From the NCBI RefSeq assembly GCF_900107095.1, contig NZ_FNOR01000019.1:1-32000 (forward strand): a stretch of DNA of 32,000 bases. Direction: 5' to 3'. Shown in pieces: positions 2,943 through 14,244 of the stretch. Position 1 is the stretch's first letter; each line of letters starts with the position of its first letter. The notes under the pieces are model-generated. The model was not told where the DNA came from. It saw only the letters and a list, made by a program, of their open reading frames with translations, and did no database searches. The stretch is from Collimonas sp. OK242. Its GTDB lineage: Bacteria > Pseudomonadota > Gammaproteobacteria > Burkholderiales > Burkholderiaceae_D. The position numbers and the translations under genes are program-made.

Positions 2943-3096
2943 ACCAGCTTTCCGGCGCAATTTCGCACTTCGCGTCGCAACGCTACGTGTTTTGGAATGG
3001 AAGCGGTTCGAATTATTGTGTGCGAAGTACAATTCCCGACTCCGTCTAGTGCGGAGTCGGGAGCGACTTTCTGTTTGCCGACGATGTCAGTGAAAT

Positions 3097-3303
3097 CTAG
3101 TCACTGGTAATCATCAGGCATCCGGGCATGACCCTGACACGTACGTTGGCATTGGGGTTGAAGCCTGTTTGCCTGATCCCGTTGCCATGCAGGCGAATCC
3201 AGAGTGTTTCAGGATCGTCGTCCTGATAGAAGGAGACGTTGAGCCGTTGTGCTGGGTTTACTATCGATGTGCTGCTATCTCGCGTACTATTGCGCTTAGC
3301 CAT
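3097..3303 (-). CDS. symE: SymE-like (AbrB/SpoVT-fold) type I toxin, ~68 aa
   Basis: The C-terminal LWIRLHGNGIRQTGFNPNANVRVRVMPGCLMIT resembles E. coli SymE [31 protein letters not shown]. The ATG at 3303 has GGAG 6 nt upstream; the ORF-track start at 3309 is a TTG. Confidence 0.6.
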   Translation of the reverse strand: MAKRNSTRDSSTSIVNPAQRLNVSFYQDDDPETLWIRLHGNGIRQTGFNPNANVRVRVMPGCLMITSD

Positions 3304-3698
3304 ATTCAACTCCGGTTTAGTTGCTTGTGGTTAGCGGGTCATGGGTGTTTCCGCACCTCTGACCCGCGTCTATTTACTGCTCTGCATAGCGCTCTTTACT
3401 CTGAACGCCTTCTTAAAAATAGCACGTGCGCATGTTTAAAGACATCATTATCGTGCGTCGATGGATTTTTAAGAAAATGCAGATACTTGGCGTTGTTGGC
3501 TTCGACTCAGCGGGTGCAGGCTTCTTTGGATTCTTTGCCGAAAAGAAGGTCATACCTATTAGCGGATAGGGGCAAAGGCGGTTGGTATTTCAATCACACA
3601 GAATATCTGGAGATGTTTCTGCTGTATGCTCGTTTTCGCAATCTATGAGAAACTAATCGACGGCAAATTTTACGGTCACACGATATGGAGATATAGCT

Positions 3699-3986
3699 AT
3701 GGGACGGGCAAAACAAGGGCAATTCGATCAAGAGGAAAAAACGAATCGAGCTTTAGCGTTATGCGTTGAAATTGGCGCCATCGAAATATGCGATTCGCAT
3801 GAGGATACATACATCGATACTCTAGAATATTCAGACTACGACGAATTGACAACAGCAATCCTAAAAAATAATCCTGACTCGATTGATTTCTTTGATAATC
3901 GAGACGACATGCTTGACTCTATAGGAGACGCTATGGGTTCTGCTGGGGATGAGTGTGGCTCTTGCGAAAAAAACCGTAATTCATAG
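3699..3986 (+). CDS. Hypothetical very acidic 95-aa protein (23 D/E vs 8 K/R by my count; 4 Cys as Cx8C and CxxC)
   Basis: An ORF with GGAGAT 8 nt upstream of the ATG and a hairpin plus T-run downstream. No family recognised. Confidence 0.55.
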   Translation: MGRAKQGQFDQEEKTNRALALCVEIGAIEICDSHEDTYIDTLEYSDYDELTTAILKNNPDSIDFFDNRDDMLDSIGDAMGSAGDECGSCEKNRNS

Positions 3987-4066
3987 ATTGCAAATTCGAA
4001 GACCAAACATAAAATGCAAACCTGCCTGTTATAACAGGATTAAAAGTAACGCTTAACTTGGACTTG

Positions 4067-4101
4067 CCAAAGGCTTTCGTTTCCGAGGGCCTTTGGTTTT
4101 T
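4067..4101 (+). terminator. Rho-independent terminator candidate downstream of the acidic-protein gene
   Basis: CCAAAGGC (4067-4074) pairs with GCCTTTGG (4089-4096), followed by TTTTT (4097-4101). Confidence 0.55.
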
Positions 4102-4373
4102 AGACTTATCAACAGTTGCGTGATAAGCCCATGAGCTGGAAAGGGTGGAATTGTAACTCGGCGTTGGATGTCATATATCCTTGGTCGGCATAGAGGTGAC
4201 TTTACACGACGCTGCCTGCTTCGCCGCTGCGTATCTAGCATTTCATTTTGCCCCCGACCCAATAGTCTCGTACATGGCAACATCGAACACCGAGTGTTCG
4301 ACTTGATACAACTTAACGTCTTTTTTCCTGAAATGCTATTGCGTTGTCTGCGGCCATTGAAATGACTACGCGA

Positions 4374-5501
4374 TTAAACAGTGGAGAGCGCTATCTCTGC
4401 TTCGCTTTCTGTCGCTGTCGATGCCAATTGTTGTATGAGCCGGGCCAGTTGGCGGGCTGTATAGCAAACGTGATGGTTCATGTCAGCTATGACCCACGTA
4501 GCAAGTGAACCGGGCCTAATTAGGCGTCTTGCGCAATCATCGATGTAAGTATCACCAAAGCTGCGTGTCCGACCCACATATCGAAAATCTGCGCTAACGC
4601 GACTGGCTAGATCGTGATACTGATCATAGTCCTTGATGGGGTGGTGGAGGGCATGGCCTCTAAAATAGATGATTTTATCGCCAGCGGTATAGCGAATTTT
4701 GGCGTTCACGTACCGGCTTGTTGTTTGATCACTGAAATCGGGATGTATGATGCCGTAATCCCCAAATGTTGGTTTGATTGTATCGGGCATGTCCCGCCAG
4801 AGAGCTGACCAAAGACGCAGTTCTTGGCGAATCACCTCGCCGACCTTATTTTTCTCGATACTACCCACGGTTTTCAGTGCGGAAGAACCGGCAATTACTA
4901 TTGATCTATAACCGGCGATGTTCGGGTTGTGAAAGAGAAAAGAAACTATGTTCTCTGCTAGGTTCGATGTGTCGTCCCCATCTATGTGTCGCAAGTCTAA
5001 AAGTAAATCAATTTTGTTTTGTGGCAGCCGCATCTGAGCGGTGCGTTCGATAATTTGCGCCCAGACATCATCGAAGAGATATTCAGCTAGATCGTCACGA
5101 GACAAGCGAAAGCAAAATCCTTTATTGAAATCCCGAGCAATCACGCCGAGCGCATCCCACAAATCATCATTTCGTTCGAATCCATACGCCGGAGTCACGG
5201 AGCGTCCGAATGCTTTTAATAGCGCGAATCCATGAAGGGTAGCGTTTGTGCCGTCTGAGATCGTCGCGTCCGGCATCAAACCGTGGAAATCTACGAAAAT
5301 CTCACCAAGCGGCAAATGCTTTCGAATGTACTCGCAGAGTTTGAAGACGTGCTCCTCTACCAGTGGAGCCTTGGGATTGATTGGCATCGCTTCGATGAAC
5401 GGTTTCATCAGTTGACGAACATCATTGTTGACCCTGCCAACGGCCATCAAATCATTTTTTTTGCCCTTGACCAGCGGCACATAAACTGAGCGACTATTCA
5501 T
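4374..5501 (-). CDS. 375-aa protein, tentatively Beta_protein (PF14350)/sce7725-like; third gene of the higB operon
   Basis: AGGAG lies 6 nt upstream of the ATG, which is 29 nt after the upstream stop. The N-terminal YVPLVKGKKNDLMAV...KPFIEAMP matches my recollection of the 'beta family protein' N-terminal signature. The family call is from memory and unverified. Confidence 0.5.
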   Translation of the reverse strand: MNSRSVYVPLVKGKKNDLMAVGRVNNDVRQLMKPFIEAMPINPKAPLVEEHVFKLCEYIRKHLPLGEIFVDFHGLMPDATISDGTNATLHGFALLKAFGRSVTPAYGFERNDDLWDALGVIARDFNKGFCFRLSRDDLAEYLFDDVWAQIIERTAQMRLPQNKIDLLLDLRHIDGDDTSNLAENIVSFLFHNPNIAGYRSIVIAGSSALKTVGSIEKNKVGEVIRQELRLWSALWRDMPDTIKPTFGDYGIIHPDFSDQTTSRYVNAKIRYTAGDKIIYFRGHALHHPIKDYDQYHDLASRVSADFRYVGRTRSFGDTYIDDCARRLIRPGSLATWVIADMNHHVCYTARQLARLIQQLASTATESEAEIALSTV

Positions 5502-5530
5502 CGATATCTCCTGCTTACGTCAACAAGATT

Positions 5531-6748
5531 TCATTGAAAATGCTGTTGTACCAATCCCTGCTCTAAAAATTCACGAAAATGCTCGTAGTGACCGCTCTCG
5601 AACTGAATTCGTCCAGCCACAATTGCTGGGTGAATATGCAGACTGTCCGCAAGTTCTTGAATGCTTTGATTTGTAGGGGCGAGTCTAGCCGACGAACGCT
5701 CCCAAACGGCACGGCGAATAAATGAATCGCGGGCTATACGATTCGCTTCATTCTCTTTTTGTTCGCTCTTCTCAGTACTCGCAATTCGTTCAATGCGATC
5801 AATAAACGCCTCGTCGGCAGTATTCAAGTGTTTCCACACGTGCGCGACCTCGTGCATCAATGTGAACCAAAAATAGTCAGTTCGATCAATTCGCAGCGTC
5901 AGACCAATCACCGGGGTGCCTCGCTCAGACAGCATCGCTGCGCCATCTATTACAGCGTTCGGTAGCCGAGGCTCGACGATCACTGCAATACCACACTTCG
6001 ATAGGAATTCAACTGCCAGGCGAGGGCCATTACTGAACCAACTTAGTCGAGCAAGGTCTCGCAACGTATCAGCAGAAATTTTTCCAGGATCAAATTTAGG
6101 TAAATCATTCTCGACATCCTTGGCACGCATCAAGACCCGGGCTGTCCATGCTAATGTCGAATAGTACGCCTTTTCATCGAGCTTATCGCCCCGAAACCTG
6201 CGTCTAAACATGATAGGCACTTGGCGGCTCGGAACAATCTGGGTAAGGAAAGAGCGAAGCCTCTCTTCTGCATTCTTCCCGCTAATTTTTGCTGCGCTGA
6301 ACCACCCACGCCTTTCCATCTCCCGATAGGGAAACCGTTTCCAGTCGATTTCTTCGACGTTGCTCTCACTGTCACGTGATGGAACGGGTTCTCTTCCGAT
6401 GAGAGCATCTGCTGGAATTCCAAGGCCGCTCGACAGAGCGCGAATCATTTGCACCGTTAGAGGTCGTTTGCCTCCTAACACTTCAGAAACCCGGCTTCTG
6501 CTGCCCAAGAGCGGAACGAGGTCCTTCTGTCGAAGTCCCTGTTCAGCCATTCGAAATTCAATAATCTCGATTGGATCAAGTGCCTCGAATTGATATGCAC
6601 GCTTTTCGTAATCTTCAATCAGGAGAGCAAGCAATGCGAGGCGATCACCTTCGGTCGATCCAATCGGTGGGTCAAGTGCAACAAGCTCCTCCGCTTCTAG
6701 CAGCGCAGTTTGATGTTCAGTTTCGCTTTTCAGAATTCTATATTCCAT
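5531..6748 (-). CDS. higA: HigA-type XRE HTH antitoxin domain fused to an ImmA/IrrE (M78, COG2856) zinc metallopeptidase domain (405 aa)
   Basis: The N-terminal ~120 aa align with E. coli HigA/YgjM (GSRSRVSEVLGGKRPLTVQMIRALSSGLGIPADALI vs GSKSMVSRVLSGKRKLTLEHAKKLATRFGISPALFI). The C-terminal domain carries HEVAH (nt 5840-5854) and a downstream ENEANRIARDSFI (ExxANxFA) motif. The ATG at 6748 lies 1 nt after the higB TGA. Confidence 0.85.
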   Translation of the reverse strand: MEYRILKSETEHQTALLEAEELVALDPPIGSTEGDRLALLALLIEDYEKRAYQFEALDPIEIIEFRMAEQGLRQKDLVPLLGSRSRVSEVLGGKRPLTVQMIRALSSGLGIPADALIGREPVPSRDSESNVEEIDWKRFPYREMERRGWFSAAKISGKNAEERLRSFLTQIVPSRQVPIMFRRRFRGDKLDEKAYYSTLAWTARVLMRAKDVENDLPKFDPGKISADTLRDLARLSWFSNGPRLAVEFLSKCGIAVIVEPRLPNAVIDGAAMLSERGTPVIGLTLRIDRTDYFWFTLMHEVAHVWKHLNTADEAFIDRIERIASTEKSEQKENEANRIARDSFIRRAVWERSSARLAPTNQSIQELADSLHIHPAIVAGRIQFESGHYEHFREFLEQGLVQQHFQ

Positions 6749-6749
6749 A

Positions 6750-7034
6750 TCAATGCATCCGCTTCGTGTACTGGTCATGTGTGCCCACCCATTTGATGGA
6801 TATCACCCCTGCGTTGTACGCCACCTGGGTTTCCAGGCGGTACTCGTTGCCGCGCACGTTAAAGATGACAATGTTTGTCGCTAAAAAGCTGGCAGACGGA
6901 TATCTGTCCTTGATATCGTGGCTAGTCTCCCAGCGACTGGCGCGTGCATCTGCGATCCAGTTCGATATCCACTTGCGGCAGTCTGCGTGCTTGTCGCAAA
7001 AGGCGGCAAGCACCCCAAGTCCAACAATCCTCAT
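6750..7034 (-). CDS. higB: HigB-type (PF09907, YgjN-like) mRNA interferase toxin, 94 aa
   Basis: FNVRGNEYRLE...IKWVGTHDQY parallels E. coli HigB FNVGGNELRVV...IREVMTHKEY. I take the start at MRIVGLG (ATG 7034) with GGGAG upstream; the longer ORF-track start at 7133 is unlikely. Confidence 0.85.
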   Translation of the reverse strand: MRIVGLGVLAAFCDKHADCRKWISNWIADARASRWETSHDIKDRYPSASFLATNIVIFNVRGNEYRLETQVAYNAGVISIKWVGTHDQYTKRMH

Positions 7035-7045
7035 TAAAACCAGGC

Positions 7046-7083
7046 TCCCATAAATGCTTCGAATCTCGAATCCCATTATGGGA
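7046..7083. promoter_or_regulatory. 8-bp inverted repeat TCCCATAA-N22-TTATGGGA overlapping the higB Shine-Dalgarno; candidate HigA operator or SD-sequestering hairpin
   Basis: The repeat arms are at 7046-7053 and 7076-7083, with an internal TCGAATCTCGAAT tandem. The proximal arm overlaps the GGGAG SD on the minus strand. Confidence 0.4.
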
Positions 7084-7458
7084 ACATATTTATTGTTACC
7101 GATTTGGGATCGGTCGTCAATGCCAAATTGCACCTAAGTAAGTGCCTTCCTGTCGCGACATGCCTGGTAATCGAGGAATTAGTGTTTAGCTAGAAACAGA
7201 CATGTGGTGATATTCATGCAGTGTGACAAAAACAGCGCCAAATGCATTTTCCAATTATGAGCATTGCTCAAGTGCAAATATTTCTCAGCTTGAATGCGAT
7301 AGTGCCAGCCCGTCCAACAAGGCATACTTTCTTTGCAATACTAATTCATCCGCACTTGCCCCACAGATTTTGTCCAACAAGTATATGTTTAAGATTTTCT
7401 TTACATATTCTATGAAGTACTAAATACTTGTTATGCATTATCAAAAAAGGGGAACAGA

Positions 7459-8019
7459 ATGGCAGCAGGGCAAACTATTGGATACTTGCGAGTATCGACC
7501 GCTGGGCAAAATACAGCGCGTCAACTTGACGGCATTGCGCTAGATCAAGTATTTGAAGACAAATGCAGTGGAAGCACGACGGATAGGCCACAACTTACGG
7601 CAATGCTCAAACATGCTCGATCAGGTGACACAGTCGTAGTGCATGAGATAAGCCGACTAGCTCGTAACACTGCCGATTTGCTAGACCTCGTAAAGCTGCT
7701 CACTACCAAGGGTGTGACTGTCTCGTTCATCAACGAGTCAATGACCTTTGCCGCTGGCAAAGATAACCCGATGAATACCATGTTCCTAACCATCATTGGA
7801 GCCATTAGTGCATTCGAGCTATCGATGATTAATGAGAGACGTGCTGAAGGCCAAGCCAAGGCGCGAGCTGAAGGTAAACACATGGGACGTACTGCGAAGC
7901 TGACAGCCGAGCAGATCGCAGTAATTAAGCAACGCGCTGCAACTGAGAGCAAGACCGCGCTGGCTGATGAGTATGGCGTATCCAGGGCAACGCTATATTC
8001 AGTATTGAAGGTGGCTTAG
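7459..8019 (+). CDS. Small serine recombinase (resolvase/invertase family), 186 aa
   Basis: An N-terminal IGYLRVSTAGQ catalytic-serine motif, a central SRLARN, and a C-terminal HTH (EYGVSRATLYSVLK). GGGGAA lies upstream of the ATG. Confidence 0.9.
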   Translation: MAAGQTIGYLRVSTAGQNTARQLDGIALDQVFEDKCSGSTTDRPQLTAMLKHARSGDTVVVHEISRLARNTADLLDLVKLLTTKGVTVSFINESMTFAAGKDNPMNTMFLTIIGAISAFELSMINERRAEGQAKARAEGKHMGRTAKLTAEQIAVIKQRAATESKTALADEYGVSRATLYSVLKVA

Positions 8020-8183
8020 GTCCATACAGCCGTCGGAATTGCATTAGGCCCATAGGCCGTCGTGAGTCGCACAAACCGGGAGCTGTACGATGCTTTTTTT
8101 CCTGACAATTCAACCCACAATTAAGGCTTGATTCTTACTATCTGATATACGATGTTATTCTTATTTGGCCAGAGAGGTCAGTC

Positions 8184-8408
8184 ATGAAAAAATCTGCAAG
8201 GATCAGAAACACAGTTTCCTATGTCAATGAGAAAAACCAACGCATCAATGTTCCGTTGGGACCGTGCGAGATTGAAGAATATCCTTCATCGAGCAAGATC
8301 GCTGCAAGAATTTGGTGGACTGACAAGGATGTGGAGAATATGACTGATCTCAGTGATGCGGAATGGGCGCACTACAAGTCCACAAAAGCATTCGTCATTG
8401 ATGATTAA
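8184..8408 (+). CDS. Hypothetical 74-aa protein upstream of the HEPN gene
   Basis: An ORF with GAGAGG 6 nt upstream of the ATG. No family recognised. Confidence 0.45.
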   Translation: MKKSARIRNTVSYVNEKNQRINVPLGPCEIEEYPSSSKIAARIWWTDKDVENMTDLSDAEWAHYKSTKAFVIDD

Positions 8409-8465
8409 TATGGTGCAGCCATTTGGAATTGCTCATGCAAACCAATCGTCGCCATTCGATACTCA

Positions 8466-9989
8466 ATGACGGCAGCATTTGAAATAACTAATACTGGGCA
8501 CGCGACCATGAAGAATTCCAAGAAAAATAATCTACAAAGCGCAGGCAATTTCACGATACCAAATGAACAAAAAGTATTTGGAAACCTTCATCTAAATGGC
8601 CGCAGCACAGTATTGCATCTTCAGCCCAAAGCTGAATTATCACCGCTCGATGAGAACAGCGTAATAAATGGAGAGTTGGGTGATCTCAGAAAAGTGAGCT
8701 GCTTACAGTGCGTCGTTGGATCTACAGGAGGTGGATTTCGAGGTGATGCTGGACAGTATCACTATGCTGACATATTCCCACATTTTGTCACTATAGGGGA
8801 TCAGCACTTAAAACCTGACGCGCACTCCATCAAAGCCGCTCATTTCACAACCAATGACGTGCCCTTGATTTTCAACGACTTTGGCGCATTCGGCCACTTT
8901 ACAGATTCAAACTCGCTAGTTAAATCTTTTGTTAAGGAAAATAGGCCCACGCACGAAATTGCACTTGGCGACTCACCCGAAATTTTCTATTTTTCAGGGA
9001 AAGATGAGGTTATTGCAGTAGATACACCTATCGGCCAGTTCCGCGTATCTCATCGACCAAGCTACCGTACGGGCGGTTCAAATGGTTCGCTCGTAAAGAA
9101 CAGCATGATTGTGACCTTGGAATACTCTGAGCCGGTCGTCCTTGGCGTGTGCATCGAGAGACTGATGTCGATCCACCGATTCCTTAGCCTCATGGCAGGT
9201 CGCAAGCAGTCAATCGAGTCAGTCTCTCTTGAGCTTGTCGGCCATTCCGTCAGCAAGCCGTCACTGCTTGAGTTGCACTGGTCTTTCGCGCCCAAACGGC
9301 CCAAAAAAGATGATAACGTGCCTCGTATAGGAGATATTCCTCTCGATGCAGTTCGTCGACCGGAGGAATTTAAAGTCGTTCTCAAAAATTGGCTAAGTCG
9401 AGAAGCCGAATGGCGGACAGCACGTATCCGATACGCAGGATGTATGGGAAAAGGAAACTCTTATAGTATTGATCGCATTGTCGCCGCCGCAAATATGTTT
9501 GATATTTTGCCCCAGGATGCGATGCCATCGGCATCTCCTCTTTCGGACGAACTTATCAAGGCACAGAAGGATTGTCGTGAAATTTTGAAGCGATTAGCTG
9601 TGGGAGTAGAGCGAGACAGCATACTTGGGGCACTAGGCAGGATGAACCAGCCTTCGCTCACGAAGAAAGTACTTCATCGAGTCGATATGGTGAATGTCCA
9701 TTTGGCCAGTCAATTTCCTGAGCTTGCGTCGGTTGCTACTACAGCGGTCAAGATCCGCAATTTCTTCGTGCATGGAAGCTCAGGTGGCTTTGATCCAGAG
9801 AAATTAGAGCCGTTACTGCCATTTCTCACGAATACTCTGGAATTTATCTTTGCCGCGTCTGATTTGATAAATGCCGGTTGGGATGCTCCAGCTTGGGGCA
9901 AAAGGCACCATAGTCGGGGGCATAATTTCATAAGTTTTCGGTGGGGTTACGAAAATCATCTTGCGCTTCTGAAGAAAGCTCTGTCGTAA
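8466..9989 (+). CDS. ApeA-like defence protein: ApeA-type N-terminal domain plus a C-terminal HEPN RNase-like domain
   Basis: An RNFFVH (Rx4H) HEPN motif at nt 9756-9773. The N-terminal GNFTIPNEQKVFGNLHLNGRSTVLHL resembles the ApeA_NTD1 opening (GxFWLP...GxLxf). The start is uncertain (8466 or the ATG at 8508). Confidence 0.6.
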   Translation: MTAAFEITNTGHATMKNSKKNNLQSAGNFTIPNEQKVFGNLHLNGRSTVLHLQPKAELSPLDENSVINGELGDLRKVSCLQCVVGSTGGGFRGDAGQYHYADIFPHFVTIGDQHLKPDAHSIKAAHFTTNDVPLIFNDFGAFGHFTDSNSLVKSFVKENRPTHEIALGDSPEIFYFSGKDEVIAVDTPIGQFRVSHRPSYRTGGSNGSLVKNSMIVTLEYSEPVVLGVCIERLMSIHRFLSLMAGRKQSIESVSLELVGHSVSKPSLLELHWSFAPKRPKKDDNVPRIGDIPLDAVRRPEEFKVVLKNWLSREAEWRTARIRYAGCMGKGNSYSIDRIVAAANMFDILPQDAMPSASPLSDELIKAQKDCREILKRLAVGVERDSILGALGRMNQPSLTKKVLHRVDMVNVHLASQFPELASVATTAVKIRNFFVHGSSGGFDPEKLEPLLPFLTNTLEFIFAASDLINAGWDAPAWGKRHHSRGHNFISFRWGYENHLALLKKALS

Positions 9990-10026
9990 CATCGCTACGA
10001 CGTTCGAAGTGACATGCGTCACGCTT

Positions 10027-10908
10027 CTATGCCGGTGCTGGACCGAATAGTCTCTCAAACAAGGCCAGAACATTCTTTCTCATATCTAACTGCTGCTGCA
10101 TGAACTCTGCCTCATCAGGCGACAAGTGAATTTCTTTCCTCAACGAGCTAATTAGCTGCACCATTGTTTTTTGTAAAGGTTCCATTTCCGCGATCAGTTT
10201 ACGCGAGTAGGCTAATTGTTGCGGGGCGAGAGCTTCTCTCATATGAGCCCGGTGTCTTTTGATTGCATCCACAAGATCATTTGCCTCTTTCCAAGCCTTT
10301 TGAACTGCCTCGATAACGTTAGCGTCTGCCCCTTGCTCAGCCAGATCGGCAAGTTTCACACTTTTGCGCAGCACCTCGCTTTCGGCGTGGATCAGCTTCT
10401 TATTTAGCTCCCAGACTGGATCCAGCGCTAATCGTAGAGGAAATGCAGATGCTAGCGCCAGCAAGTACACTTCTGACATTTTGTTAGCAAGGTCGCGCGA
10501 TAAATGAGCAGCTTCCGACTCTGCTACAAGCCAAATTTTTGAGTTGGCCTTTAAGAAAACCTGAAGGGCATCACTATCAGTGTTTCCGGAAAAATCTAAG
10601 GGCTTAAAAGGGAAACCACCAATAGCCCCAAGAGCCGCGTGTGTCTCCTCCACTGCTTTCGTGTAGACCTCACGCCTAATTGCTGCTTTTCGATCTTCCT
10701 CTTTTTGGATGGCGTCATGGGATCGCTGTTTGTCAGCTTCCAATTTATCGTGAACGTGTTGGTCTCTCAAACGCTTGTAGCTGCTATTGTTGGCAGAACG
10801 GATCCCAACATACGACATGCCGGATGCCAGCAAGGCACCAATTGCCCCCGACCAAATCACAGCCGGTATGCTATCAATCCAAACGAAAAACGCGTCCCAC
10901 AAATCCAT
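10027..10908 (-). CDS. Hypothetical membrane-anchored all-alpha protein (one N-terminal TM, then a ~250-aa helical/coiled-coil region)
   Basis: A hydrophobic segment IPAVIWSGAIGALLASGMSYVGI is followed by charged helical sequence. GAGGTG lies upstream of the ATG, 60 nt downstream of the DUF4145 gene on the same strand. Confidence 0.7.
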   Translation of the reverse strand: MDLWDAFFVWIDSIPAVIWSGAIGALLASGMSYVGIRSANNSSYKRLRDQHVHDKLEADKQRSHDAIQKEEDRKAAIRREVYTKAVEETHAALGAIGGFPFKPLDFSGNTDSDALQVFLKANSKIWLVAESEAAHLSRDLANKMSEVYLLALASAFPLRLALDPVWELNKKLIHAESEVLRKSVKLADLAEQGADANVIEAVQKAWKEANDLVDAIKRHRAHMREALAPQQLAYSRKLIAEMEPLQKTMVQLISSLRKEIHLSPDEAEFMQQQLDMRKNVLALFERLFGPAPA

Positions 10909-10968
10909 CTTTCACCTCAAATCATTGATGTAACTTGGAACACGTGGGCTTCGCGTAAGCTGAAGCTG

Positions 10969-11622
10969 TTATTGCTTCATCTCTGGTTTTCCAGCCGCTT
11001 TGAGTTTTGCATTTAGTGCATCTCGTCTTTGCTTTGCTTTTTCCGGTTGAACGTAGAAAAAATCAAATAACTCTTCCAAAACGTCTAAGTTCCACTCTGC
11101 CTCCTCGGGTTCCACGGACATAATTGACCCGCTGCTGGTGTCCTTCATTGGATGGGCGGCAAAATTACCTATATTGCGTACCGCGTCCAGATTGTCGGCA
11201 ATTGCAGGTGGCAATTTATTTGAATCTATAGCTGCCTTAATTGCTGGAGCAAGATTGTGTTGAGTGAAGCCATTCTCGTGCAACACGCCTTGAAGACAAC
11301 GCCGACTCAATGCAGCAGACGCTTTAGGGCTATCAGATAGTACAAGGCACGCTTCGTTAAAATCCTCTGCGAGATTTGCTGGCACCTCTGCCGGTGCCTT
11401 CGGCCTATTAGCCGCACGAGGATAGACTAATCGCATCGGTGTACCAATAATCCCGTTTCCTAACTGAGAGGATAGGAAAATTATCGCGTCATGGCAGGAT
11501 GGACATTCCATATGCGTCGCGGTCCAATATAAAGGTGCGCCGTGTTTTTCCCCAATTGCTGGATTAAACGTTGTTGTGTGAAAGCCTGGATGAATCTCAA
11601 TTTGGCAGTGCGGACATTGCAT
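10969..11622 (-). CDS. Zn-ribbon (CPHC...CPSC) plus DUF4145-like domain protein, 217 aa
   Basis: Cys pairs at residues 3/6 and 40/43. LDAVRNIGNFAAHP (nt 11152-11178 cover R149-H157) matches the conserved RxxGNxxAH signature I associate with DUF4145 (PF13643). AGGGG lies 6 nt upstream of the ATG. Confidence 0.7.
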   Translation of the reverse strand: MQCPHCQIEIHPGFHTTTFNPAIGEKHGAPLYWTATHMECPSCHDAIIFLSSQLGNGIIGTPMRLVYPRAANRPKAPAEVPANLAEDFNEACLVLSDSPKASAALSRRCLQGVLHENGFTQHNLAPAIKAAIDSNKLPPAIADNLDAVRNIGNFAAHPMKDTSSGSIMSVEPEEAEWNLDVLEELFDFFYVQPEKAKQRRDALNAKLKAAGKPEMKQ

Positions 11623-11745
11623 TGTTGGCCCCTAACAGAAAATGATTGTGCAGTTCATATAGTTTTTATTTATGCAAGTTAGAGTATCCGGAATACTGCC
11701 CAATTGCATCAATTTGCATCAAAATAATTCTCACCTGTCTTGCCA

Positions 11746-11773
11746 TTGCCATATTTCGCAAATCTCATATACT
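11746..11773 (+). promoter_or_regulatory. Sigma70-type promoter TTGCCA-N16-TATACT
   Basis: The -35 is at 11746-11751 and the -10 at 11768-11773. The -10 overlaps the LexA box. Confidence 0.55.
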
Positions 11774-11789
11774 GTACATTCATACAGTT
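11770..11789. promoter_or_regulatory. LexA (SOS) box TACTGTACATTCATACAGTT
   Basis: CTGT (11772-11775)-N8-ACAG (11784-11787) with TA/T flanks, a full match to the beta/gammaproteobacterial CTGT-N8-ACAG core. Confidence 0.7.
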
Positions 11790-11805
11790 GTTTGGGGTGG
11801 CAAAA

Positions 11806-11940
11806 ATGTTTGTGCGTGTCGAATGCCTCTGGGATGAGGGACGCCGATTAGAACGTGACGTATTGGCAGCACGCAAGAGAAATTGCATTTGTGGCGAACT
11901 GCGCCTAGAGCGTCAAAAGCATGAATATCTTGCGGAGTGA
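11806..11940 (+). CDS. 44-aa ORF (MFVRVECLWDEGRRLERDVLAARKRNCICGELRLERQKHEYLAE) downstream of the SOS promoter
   Basis: GGGGTGG lies 5 nt upstream of the ATG, which is 17 nt downstream of the LexA box. The product is charged and helical-looking with 3 Cys. It may instead be part of a non-coding RNA. Confidence 0.4.
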   Translation: MFVRVECLWDEGRRLERDVLAARKRNCICGELRLERQKHEYLAE

Positions 11941-12020
11941 ACTACTCTTGTGGCACGTCTAATGAATGGGGACTTTGACTCACTGTCACCGTTACAAGAT
12001 GCTGTAGATTAGATCGGTGG

Positions 12021-12040
12021 ATAGCGTTTTAAAACGCTAT
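12021..12040 (+). terminator. Perfect 20-bp palindrome ATAGCGTTTTAAAACGCTAT, then TTGAGTCTT; likely end of the SOS-controlled transcript
   Basis: Read directly from the sequence, 80 nt after the micro-ORF stop. Confidence 0.4.
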
Positions 12041-12152
12041 TTGAGTCTTAAATTAATCCGCTGATTTCGCAATCAATTACGATTTTGGTTCAGCCTATGG
12101 CTGTATCTGATACGTCTTGAAAATTTGGAGATTCCGGCGAATGCGGGAACCT

Positions 12153-12899
12153 TTATTCTGATTGCAATGTTTTTTGAGCGAATCGTATTTGCACAAAACT
12201 TTGCCCGGGAAATATGCTTTGCAACGCGATTTGCATTTGGTTATCCATTTTCTTCGTCGTGGCGATGCCCTCGTCCACTTGCCTGATGAATTGATCGGTC
12301 AACGCGGCCAGCTTGGCATACTCAGCTCTAAAAATCGTCTGCAATGATTCGTGCGTCAGATTAGGGATGTTCTTTGAAAGCACGGCCTTGCGCAAATCAT
12401 CGTGCGCGACGGCTCGCAGTTCAACGGTGTTGAGCAGAGCTTGATGATGCCAGTCAAGGACTCGCAACTCCACCAGAGCCATTGAGCACAGCTCGCCGTC
12501 TTGATCCAGAAAATAGTTGAGGCTGTCGAAATCGAAATGGAGCGATTGCATCATGCCGGGCTGCGGCGAGTCCATGAGGAATGCACGGTCTTCGCTTTGC
12601 CTGATGTCTTCGTGATCTATGAAGAATTGACGCAAATTGTCGAATACGTTGAACATGGTTGCAATTGTGAACAACGCTTTGTTCGCTGACGAAATACGTA
12701 TATTGCGCTCGGCCTCATCGCGTGTTTTCCGCTCCGCGCTGAACGCAGCCCATCCGCCTGCCCACGCCGCTACAAATGTTCCGAAGACTGTGACGATGAG
12801 ATCGACGTATCTATCATGATGCGTGTAGATCAGCACTCCGGAAAAAATGAATGCGGCGAGAATGACTACGATGAACGGACGGTTGAATTTGGACAGCAT
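12153..12899 (-). CDS. Hypothetical protein with an N-terminal 2-TM hairpin plus a ~190-aa soluble helical domain (248 aa from MLSKFNRP)
   Basis: Two hydrophobic helices (FIVVILAAFIFSGVLIY; LIVTVFGTFVAAWAGGWAAF). I take the start at 12899 because the ORF-track start (13001) overlaps the upstream gene. Confidence 0.6.
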   Translation of the reverse strand: MLSKFNRPFIVVILAAFIFSGVLIYTHHDRYVDLIVTVFGTFVAAWAGGWAAFSAERKTRDEAERNIRISSANKALFTIATMFNVFDNLRQFFIDHEDIRQSEDRAFLMDSPQPGMMQSLHFDFDSLNYFLDQDGELCSMALVELRVLDWHHQALLNTVELRAVAHDDLRKAVLSKNIPNLTHESLQTIFRAEYAKLAALTDQFIRQVDEGIATTKKMDNQMQIALQSIFPGQSFVQIRFAQKTLQSE

Positions 12900-12952
12900 C
12901 GCGCTTTTCCATGAAATGGGGGCAGTGCACAGTATGAAAATGGGTTGAATGT

Positions 12953-13582
12953 CTATGCGTCGGTGCGCGGCTTCGATTCTCGAAATCCACGAACGATCCA
13001 ACGGACGACGGAAGCGAAAAGCTCAGAAAACATCCATAACAGCAATGGAAGCGCGATGCCGACAAGTAGGAAGCGGGACCAACGAATTTCCGATGTCTTC
13101 GGAATGCCATCCTGTTTCGACCAATAGATTTCCCAAGGTTTGATCTCTCTCTCCGTCGACAGATCGAATCCTTTCTTATCGCCACTCTGCTTGGCTTGCT
13201 GATTCTTGGGAACGAGAGATGCGGCCGAGCGGGGGGCGCGCAGCAAGGCTTCCAATCGGGCCGCGAGTTCCGGCGTCAACTTGTTGGGCATGTCCACTAT
13301 GGTGCCGTCAGGCATCTGCACGGGGACAGCGGACTGTCCCTCTTCCTTTTCTCGGCGAACAGCGAATTCAATTTCTTCTTGGTCCGAAAGCCGGACGTTG
13401 CGGCCATCCGGCAAAGTGGCCGTGTCGCCTTTGACCAATGTCCCGACAGGAATACCTTGATAAACGAAGTAGCCGTCGTTCTTGCTGAAATAATCCGTTC
13501 CCGCGATTATCGACGCGATGCCGATCCACAGTATCGACATCGCCAAGGCGATGCGCCTCCACCCATTTAAGCGGACAACCAT
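12953..13582 (-). CDS. Hypothetical membrane protein with N- and C-terminal TM helices flanking a ~150-aa charged domain (209 aa from MVVRLNGW)
   Basis: GGGAGA lies 5 nt upstream of the ATG at 13582. TM segments are IALAMSILWIGIASIIAG and FLLVGIALPLLLWMFSELFASVV. Confidence 0.6.
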   Translation of the reverse strand: MVVRLNGWRRIALAMSILWIGIASIIAGTDYFSKNDGYFVYQGIPVGTLVKGDTATLPDGRNVRLSDQEEIEFAVRREKEEGQSAVPVQMPDGTIVDMPNKLTPELAARLEALLRAPRSAASLVPKNQQAKQSGDKKGFDLSTEREIKPWEIYWSKQDGIPKTSEIRWSRFLLVGIALPLLLWMFSELFASVVRWIVRGFRESKPRTDA

Positions 13583-13964
13583 ATTTTTCTCCCGTCGATA
13601 TACCGCTGGAGTAGACAGGCTATCACAACAGGCAAATTCGATGCCTCCATTCAATCAAAGCGGCAATTAGAGACTCTATGGATCAGATCGGGGAATTGTT
13701 TGGCGAGTGGCTTCGGTCACTCGCCATTTTTATCGGGCAAACGAAAAGTTTAAAAAATTGCCGGAGATTTTTGAGGCTACGGGTGAGCAAAATTAAAAAA
13801 TTGCCCGTTAATAAGTGTACCCGCCACTTTCAAAGCGGACGGCTAACTAACTTTGGTCTCGATGGTGGCGAGTTAGGATTTTCTGACCGAATAAGTTCTT
13901 GGTTTTTGCGACTCAAAGAAATGAAGCGGGTCGATACAGACCATCCATTTTGTACCCTGAGAGG

Positions 13965-13999
13965 CAAAAAATGAAAAAGGCCAATCCGAAGATTGGCCT
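13965..13999 (-). terminator. Rho-independent terminator of tRNA-Pro
   Basis: The minus strand reads AGGCCAATC-TTCG-GATTGGCCT followed by TTTTCATTTTTG, starting 17 nt after the tRNA 3' end. Confidence 0.75.
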
Positions 14000-14015
14000 A
14001 AGTCATTGATTCAAT

Positions 14016-14092
14016 TGGTCGGGGCGAGAAGATTCGAACTTCCGACCCCTTGCACCCCATGCAAGTACGCTACCAGGCTGCGCTACGCCCCG
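14016..14092 (-). tRNA. tRNA-Pro (anticodon GGG), 77 nt with encoded CCA
   Basis: The minus strand reads CGGGGCG-TA-GCGC-AGCCTGGTA-GCGT-A-CTTGC-ATGGGGT-GCAAG-GGGTC-GGAAG-TTCGAAT-CTTCT-CGCCCCG-ACCA. This is a cloverleaf with anticodon loop AU-GGG-GU. A TATAAT at 14103-14108 (minus strand) is a likely -10. Confidence 0.9.
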
Positions 14093-14244
14093 ACAAGCCT
14101 GCTATTATATCAGAGCAAAATTGCTTTGTTTCCAAGGCAATACATAAAATTTTAACTGTTTGTTCGCCAGACGATGACGCCGTTCATTGCAGTTTGCAAT
14201 GAACCGTCAGATCGCCCGGCCGGCAATCCTCATTCGATAATCTT

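Follow-up and report, generated by a model that had tools for sequence, protein, structure and literature searches.

The window (the whole stretch of 32,000 nt that was analysed) comes from Collimonas sp. OK242, a member of the Oxalobacteraceae, Burkholderiales, Betaproteobacteria. Between positions ~3000 and 14000 it contains a low-GC island of ~11 kb, with a GC content of 0.44-0.50 compared to 0.55-0.61 in the surrounding sequence. The island lies between the gene for a monomeric isocitrate dehydrogenase and tRNA-Pro(GGG) (14016-14092, minus strand), where it adjoins the 3′ end of the tRNA. A direct repeat of the tRNA-Pro end, as in att sites, was not detected. The island has no tyrosine integrase, and it encodes a 186-aa serine resolvase at 7459-8019. 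Its other main features, among them the parts of a small unit between two gene cassettes, are the following:

4374-7133 (−): complete PD-Lambda-2-type defence set (HigB-like toxin, PD-Lambda-2_B, PD-Lambda-2_C)
8466-9989 (+): ApeA (HEPN) gene, a defence-type gene
10027-11622 (−): gene for a DUF4145 protein, PD-T7-4-like (PD-T7-4 match, E 3e-20)
11746-11751 (+): −35 hexamer TTGCCA of the promoter TTGCCA-N16-TATACT (score 10/12)
11768-11773 (+): −10 hexamer TATACT, sharing bases with the left half of the LexA box
11770-11789 (no strand): predicted LexA operator (SOS box), TACTGTACATTCATACAGTT, extending over the −10 and the predicted start of transcription
11794-11800 (+): Shine-Dalgarno sequence GGGGTGG, 5 nt 5′ of the ATG; homologues have GAGGTGA at the equivalent position
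11806-11940 (+): codons 1-44 of a putative fam113 pseudogene with a premature TGA (11938-40); homology to proteins P0037-P0040
11941-12003 (+): in-frame continuation past the stop, TTLVARLMNGDFDSLSPLQDA, homologous to fam113 residues 46-66
12004-12017 (+): 3′ end of the original gene (GTA GAT TAG + ATCGG), still present and fused in frame to codon 66, with ~45 codons deleted in between
12021-12040 (no strand): perfect 20-bp palindrome just past the end of the fam113 homology, at the junction
12153-13654 (−): cassette of two membrane proteins (233 aa and 282 aa), without a Pfam or PADLOC match

In the PD-Lambda-2-type set the HigB-like toxin has 94 aa (called in L001), PD-Lambda-2_B is a HTH and M78 peptidase protein (E 4e-157) and PD-Lambda-2_C is a Beta protein (E 3e-184). 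At the left edge of the island a small ORF (3699-3986, plus strand) gave a borderline match to a lambda ea8.5-related domain (26.4 bits at a cut-off of 27).

The unit with the LexA box occupies the 530-bp gap 11623-12152, and blastn with this gap against plasmids and phages gave no match. On its left side, the 293-aa protein encoded downstream of DUF4145 (TM293, family unassigned) is absent from all 16 loci with DUF4145 homologues, and therefore the two genes do not form a conserved cassette. On its right side, the 233-aa and 282-aa genes are a conserved pair, with two neighbouring counterparts in the metagenome contig L019 (230-1508) at 44% and 78% identity. The 282-aa protein has ~35 homologues and is 100% identical to a Collimonas sp. 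OK242 protein. Neither the LexA box nor the ORF behind it is present in the 16 DUF4145 loci, and box, ORF and palindrome are all missing from L019-L021, the three loci that encode a homologue of the 282-aa membrane protein. As judged from these comparisons, the unit has no link with the cassettes on its two sides, and the proposal of the earlier note that an sRNA from it acts on a neighbouring cassette finds no backing in the homologous loci.

We also considered whether the box belongs to one of these cassettes. Membership in the DUF4145 cassette was rejected, since box, ORF and TM293 partner are absent from all 16 loci with DUF4145 homologues. Membership in the membrane-protein cassette was rejected as well, since L019-L021 lack box and ORF and the palindrome is not conserved.

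The LexA box and its promoter

In a scan of positions 3000-14200, TTGCCA-N16-TATACT was the top sigma70-like site of the 11-kb island. The LexA box, with the half-sites CTGT (11772-75) and ACAG (11784-87) and, on direct reading, the flanks TA...TA, lies on the −10 of this promoter, which is the classical arrangement for SOS repression. The ATG of the ORF at 11806 follows 16 nt past the end of the box. These elements had been described in the earlier note, and the perfect CTGT-N8-ACAG at 11770-11789 inside the promoter and on its −10, as well as GGGGTGG, the 44-aa ORF at 11806-11940, the 20-bp palindrome at 12021-12040 and the 530-bp gap, were all read just as given there.

CTGT-N8-ACAG occurs once in the 32 kb, at a chance expectation of 0.43. 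For the extended motif TACTGT-N8-ACAGT with at most one mismatch, 0.11 occurrences are expected in the window by chance. The box agrees in 16 of 20 positions with the E. coli LexA-box consensus. CTGT-N8-ACAG is the LexA motif for most beta- and gamma-proteobacteria (PMC3323433), and it is used by the class to which Collimonas sp. OK242 belongs, a match at the level of the class. Taken by itself, the box in the window is suggestive, and the case is carried by comparative evidence. Because the same box is kept in homologous promoters elsewhere (see below), it is not regarded as a chance match. As far as can be judged from aligned sequences, operator and promoter are real and conserved, and from this we infer LexA binding and inducibility; the promoter in the window is probably still SOS-inducible. 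The comparisons also support the view that the box serves the coding sequence downstream on the plus strand and not the divergent DUF4145 gene.

Immediately upstream of the −35, two tandem direct repeats with 10-bp spacing, AATTGCATCAAT and ATTTGCATCAAA, are found at 11702-11723. They are conserved in no fam113 locus.

The reading frame behind the promoter

With the 44-aa sequence as query, HMMER was run exhaustively over 1.84 billion representative proteins and returned four homologues, P0037-P0040, with 62-78% identity and E values from 8.6e-13 to 5.1e-8. The alignment starts from residue 1 in each of them, and with lengths of 84-114 aa all exceed the 44 aa of the query. A word-index protein search with the ORF gave no match, and an exact-product look-up was without result as well, since no gene had been called for the ORF. 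The homologues belong to a family designated fam113 here, which comprises 13 clusters among 5.8 billion proteins; the clusters with a named source are all from Collimonas. Intact members have 105-114 aa, and MFVRVE.LWDEG... is the motif of the family.

When the window is translated beyond the TGA in the same frame, the product reads TTLVARLMNGDFDSLSPLQDAVD up to the next stop, and it matches fam113 residues 46-66 up to ...QDA. In tblastn the region 11806-12003 showed 74% identity across 66 codons. Codon 45 is CGN (Arg) in 9/9 homologous genes examined, with CGA in the closest one, while it is TGA in the window; Arg45 is invariant in the family. Amino acid identity to the homologues amounts to 26-33/44 before the stop and 15-17/21 after it, at ~70% nucleotide identity in both parts. 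Since conservation is equal on either side of the TGA, the nonsense mutation is considered to be recent and not a selected endpoint. This pattern indicates that the sequence past the stop was under protein-level constraint until recently. The TGA at 11938-40 is read from one strain, for which the NCBI and Logan assemblies concur, probably on the basis of the same reads.

Collinear homology stops at 12003. The next 14 nt, GTAGATTAGATCGG, agree in 13/14 positions, and in frame, with the gene end GTAGACTAGATCGG (...V D stop + ATCGG) of the fam113 loci L022, L029, L030 and L037. By our estimate, <0.01 matches of this kind would arise by chance, all placements considered. The boundaries of the deletion are ambiguous by 1-2 codons. 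The homology past the TGA and the jump to the conserved gene end therefore mark the gene in the window as a broken copy of a gene of ~113 codons. By its sequence, the 44-aa ORF represents the N-terminal remainder of a fam113 gene for ~113 aa that was hit by a nonsense codon and an internal deletion, and the dedicated 44-aa protein that the earlier note had envisaged gives way to this view. The window copy has lost what characterises intact fam113, namely a length of ~105-114 aa, the C-terminal strands and the invariant W95. No remnants of SRAP or DUF2471, two gene families that accompany fam113 elsewhere, were found in 11400-12400.

An AlphaFold2 model of P0037 predicts a single beta-rich domain with seven strands over residues 2-99 (pLDDT 76.6, pTM 0.67). 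The stub would comprise strand 1, a helix and strand 2 of this protein, and it is most likely non-functional; truncation and predicted fold together point to a loss of function of the fam113 copy in the window. The 44-aa peptide is charged and hydrophilic and has no transmembrane segment. Being hydrophilic and a fragment of a ~113-aa family, it does not fit the small toxin that had also been suggested.

The palindrome behind the gene remnant folds with −10.8 kcal/mol (z = −2.9), is A/T-rich and has a weak U-tract. A terminator scan did not call it, and it is conserved neither in fam113 loci nor downstream of the membrane-protein homologues in L019-L021. It may act as a weak bidirectional terminator that ends part of the transcripts. 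On these points the description of the palindrome in the earlier note is corrected. Read-through past the palindrome would be antisense to the convergent membrane-protein genes; this juxtaposition is unique to the strain and probably accidental. Searching Rfam with the unit at E<=1 gave no match, and its RNA fold was no better than that of shuffled sequences (z = −0.44). These two results speak against the suggestion that the unit encodes an sRNA.

Conservation and gene neighbourhood of fam113

We read the gene contexts of fam113 in the contigs of P0037/P0039, six IMG/VR contigs, two complete Collimonas genomes and a 20-kb view of the C. pratensis locus (WXXL01000002.1, L022/L040). The layout with TACTGT-N8-ACAGTA on the −10 heads fam113 homologues in 22 other distinct loci, of which 11 are metagenome contigs and one is a Massilia plasmid, the others being Collimonas prophages and genomes. 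In these four sets, every locus with an intact upstream region has a strong LexA box that overlaps the −10, with its end 12-16 nt from the fam113 ATG or ~21-22 nt from a leading DUF2471. The overlap reads TATACTGT in all homologous loci but L037/L038, where it reads CATACACTGT (−10 TACACT). The end of the box is 11-16 nt before the fam113 ATG in L028, L029, L030, L037/38, L041 and all 11 metagenome loci, and ~21-22 nt before DUF2471 where this gene leads (L022, L026, L032-34). A distant subfamily of ~105 aa starts with MFVRVAQLFE..., and in 12/12 of its loci 11-12 nt separate the box from the ATG: L041 (2969-4809 of the Massilia sp. WG5 plasmid NZ_CP012641.2) and L044-L054. A comparison of 11 distinct boxes from homologous loci showed no variation at positions 2-6, 10 and 13-19, while the other spacer positions vary. 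Invariant half-sites with a variable spacer are, at the level of sequence, the signature of selection on a LexA operator.

Exceptions are L036, which lost its upstream part, L042 with an IS1595 insertion upstream, and L031 with an N6 spacer. In the latter, an IMG/VR prophage, CTGT-N6-ACAG at 2560-2582 has a 2-bp deletion in the spacer, and a canonical box is present ~240 nt further upstream.

Decay is also seen in other copies. In L036 a stub of 40 aa is left, and truncated SRAP genes occur in L030, L037 and L038. At 3920-4261 of L037/L038 (CP013233.1, CP013235.1), fam113 is annotated with 86 aa, while the ORF is intact for 113 codons. The true ATG is 16 nt past the LexA box; as the frame is open for 113 codons from this ATG, the annotated start was mis-called. 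SRAP behind it is truncated to ~52 codons.

Two architectures recur, LexA box-DUF2471-fam113-SRAP and LexA box-fam113-(SRAP). In L028, in L037/38 (with the truncated SRAP) and in the window, fam113 is the sole gene of these families that remains. For 7/12 loci of the distant subfamily the next gene encodes an IMS/Y-family, ImuB-like polymerase; we found no description of such a two-gene SOS cassette of fam113 and an ImuB-like protein. SRAP (YedK-like) and the ImuB-like Y-family polymerase are damage-tolerance partners of the SOS type. In the P2-like prophages of Collimonas, the module occupies the edge of the prophage: past the portal gene no other operon comes before it, and RES/HNH/AAA cargo genes follow. 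The presence of SRAP in Burkholderiales prophages was noted by Aravind et al. 2013 (PMC3765255). An origin of the unit in the window from a temperate or mobile element is supported by these findings. A backbone shared by the window and L028 was considered and rejected, as the resolvases are just 27% identical.

Members of fam113 have no Pfam or NCBIfam match and are hypothetical proteins where they are named. Nine of ten members match phrog_5560, a phage family of unknown function (best E 4.7e-9), which represents a weak and distant link. The distant homologues show 26-33% identity, and for the Massilia homologue hhalign gave a probability of 98.2% (E 2.7e-14). W95 near the C-terminus is invariant and basic residues are conserved. 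Fold searches with the fam113 model gave nothing significant, and a sequence-profile search of the PDB returned a noise match alone (Inscuteable, E 0.013). P0037 and DUF2471 had no tblastn match in annotated phages. A literature search yielded no papers on DUF2471 and none on LexA in Collimonas prophages.

Origin of the unit and alternative explanations

Considering these data together, we regard it as likely that the window contains a genuine LexA operator in a sigma70 promoter, which stems from a mobile SOS module and is now attached to a crippled fam113 gene. The source module would have the order LexA box, (DUF2471), fam113 (~105-114 aa), SRAP or ImuB-like Y-family polymerase. It would circulate on P2-like prophages, plasmids and islands of Oxalobacteraceae, and the window would have inherited its operator and promoter from it. 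In OK242 the promoter with its operator, the ribosome-binding site and the crippled fam113 would be retained, and the partner gene would be lost. Two lesions are seen in fam113: CGA has become TGA at the invariant Arg45, and ~45 codons are deleted in frame. LexA dimers would occlude RNA polymerase at the promoter; upon DNA damage, LexA autocleavage stimulated by RecA* would derepress a short transcript, which in OK242 would encode the 44-aa stub only. An apparent orphan SOS promoter in a defence island would in this way be explained as debris of an SOS operon from a mobile element.

The intact promoter, operator and Shine-Dalgarno sequence would be expected as well if the stub were still in use. 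The 44-aa N-terminal peptide would then be a functional SOS-induced micro-protein, e.g., a regulator or anti-repressor. Promoter, LexA box, Shine-Dalgarno sequence and ATG are indeed intact and strong, and the N-terminal ~40 residues are the best conserved part across the short members P0038 and P0048. However, the codons past the stop are conserved as well as those before it, Arg45 is invariant, and the predicted fold is a single beta domain that needs residues 2-99. Moreover, the other stub (L036) has no LexA box and abuts host genes, and the short member P0038 derives from a contig of 669 bp. We therefore consider a functional micro-protein improbable, and the stub in OK242 serves as a warning against reading such ORFs as micro-proteins. 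The SOS transcript could also be a regulatory RNA, either an sRNA or an antisense read-through into 12153-13654 (−). The promoter faces the convergent cassette, which lies 213 nt past the stop, and the sole hairpin (12021-40), rich in A/T and with a poor U-tract, was not called as a terminator. Against this stand the missing Rfam match, the fold that does not differ from shuffles, and the fact that the juxtaposition is unique to OK242, with neither box nor ORF downstream in L019-L021. The transcribed sequence is, in addition, conserved as protein-coding sequence and not as RNA, which makes a function as RNA unlikely.

The palindromic box is located 148 nt upstream of the start of DUF4145 (11622), and it might control the divergent DUF4145 (PD-T7-4-like)/TM293 cassette, so that a defence gene would become SOS-inducible. 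No minus-strand promoter was found within 11623-11800, though, the CTGT-N8-ACAG box is present in 0/16 DUF4145 homologue loci, and in every other locus the box accompanies fam113. Such a control is very unlikely. As to a chance palindrome without regulatory meaning, a bare CTGT-N8-ACAG is expected 0.43 times per window, but the extended motif just 0.11 times, and the box lies exactly on the best promoter of the island. The arrangement is kept in 22 homologous loci, down to 26-33% protein identity, so that coincidence can practically be dismissed. The reading as a genuine operator that outlived its SOS module is thus preferred over these alternatives.

LexA-repressed promoters of genes on mobile elements are already known, and the copy in the window, which is attached to a pseudogene, is ordinary in this respect. 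Phages of the 186 type, which are P2-like, have Tum as their LexA-controlled antirepressor (PMC12055606). In the p95-tum-orf97 region of coliphage 186 the LexA box begins at the −10 and tum follows 18 nt past the box; the geometry in the window, with the box on the −10 and 16 nt between box and ATG, is nearly identical. Coliphage 186 and the fam113 relatives also appear alike in that an accessory operon of a P2-like prophage is gated directly by the host LexA. No sequence similarity was found between Tum (DinI domain) or Orf97 and fam113, DUF2471 or SRAP. Unlike tum of 186, the copy in the window is truncated and lies outside a prophage, as the window has no prophage genes, and unlike Tum, fam113 is also found on plasmids beside an ImuB-like polymerase, which points to damage tolerance rather than prophage induction. 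The Tum-type factor of a temperate element suggested by the earlier note is therefore upheld with regard to the origin and the geometry of the promoter, but not to homology with Tum/DinI.

Intact fam113 resembles the SOS mutagenesis cassettes (SRAP/YedK, imuA-imuB-dnaE2, ImuB-C) in standing under a LexA box together with SRAP or an IMS/Y-family gene. Unlike in imuA-imuB-dnaE2, neither dnaE2 nor imuA adjoins fam113. Small beta-rich standalone ImuB-C proteins occur in operons with SRAP or Y-family polymerases (Aravind et al., PMC3765255). By the published description, on which this comparison is based, fam113 shares with ImuB-C the small size, the high content of beta strands, an invariant Trp close to the C-terminus and conserved basic residues. 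For fam113 there was no Pfam match at E<=10, and a comparison by hhalign with the C-terminus of the adjacent Y-family protein was negative. The SOS-regulated type I toxins TisB, DinQ, HokE and SymE share with the window the short ORF right behind a LexA box, here in a defence-rich region. Unlike these toxins, the peptide of the window is hydrophilic, has no transmembrane segment and is a fragment of a larger soluble protein. An antisense sRNA partner of the type I toxin kind was not found, and neither was an Rfam match.

The family fam113 is unannotated, consistently LexA-controlled as judged by its boxes, and coupled to SRAP or ImuB-like polymerases. It is a new candidate member of the SOS/damage-tolerance network on mobile elements of Burkholderiales, and it is experimentally tractable in Collimonas. 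Possibly, though this is tentative, intact fam113 is an undescribed core SOS component of Oxalobacteraceae mobile elements, which could work as a small beta-rich adaptor or lesion-recognition factor for SRAP or ImuB-like Y-family polymerases, or as a prophage-induction switch analogous to Tum. If this were true, the stub in OK242 might retain a dominant-negative or regulatory activity.

Residues 5-35 of the 44-aa ORF are also weakly matched (E 1.4e-5 over three stretches) by a motif, ...LWDERPKWIKYS.EAKKR.LSCG., which is repeated in P0041, a metagenome protein of 692 aa with MORN repeats; the similarity reflects either convergence or homology.
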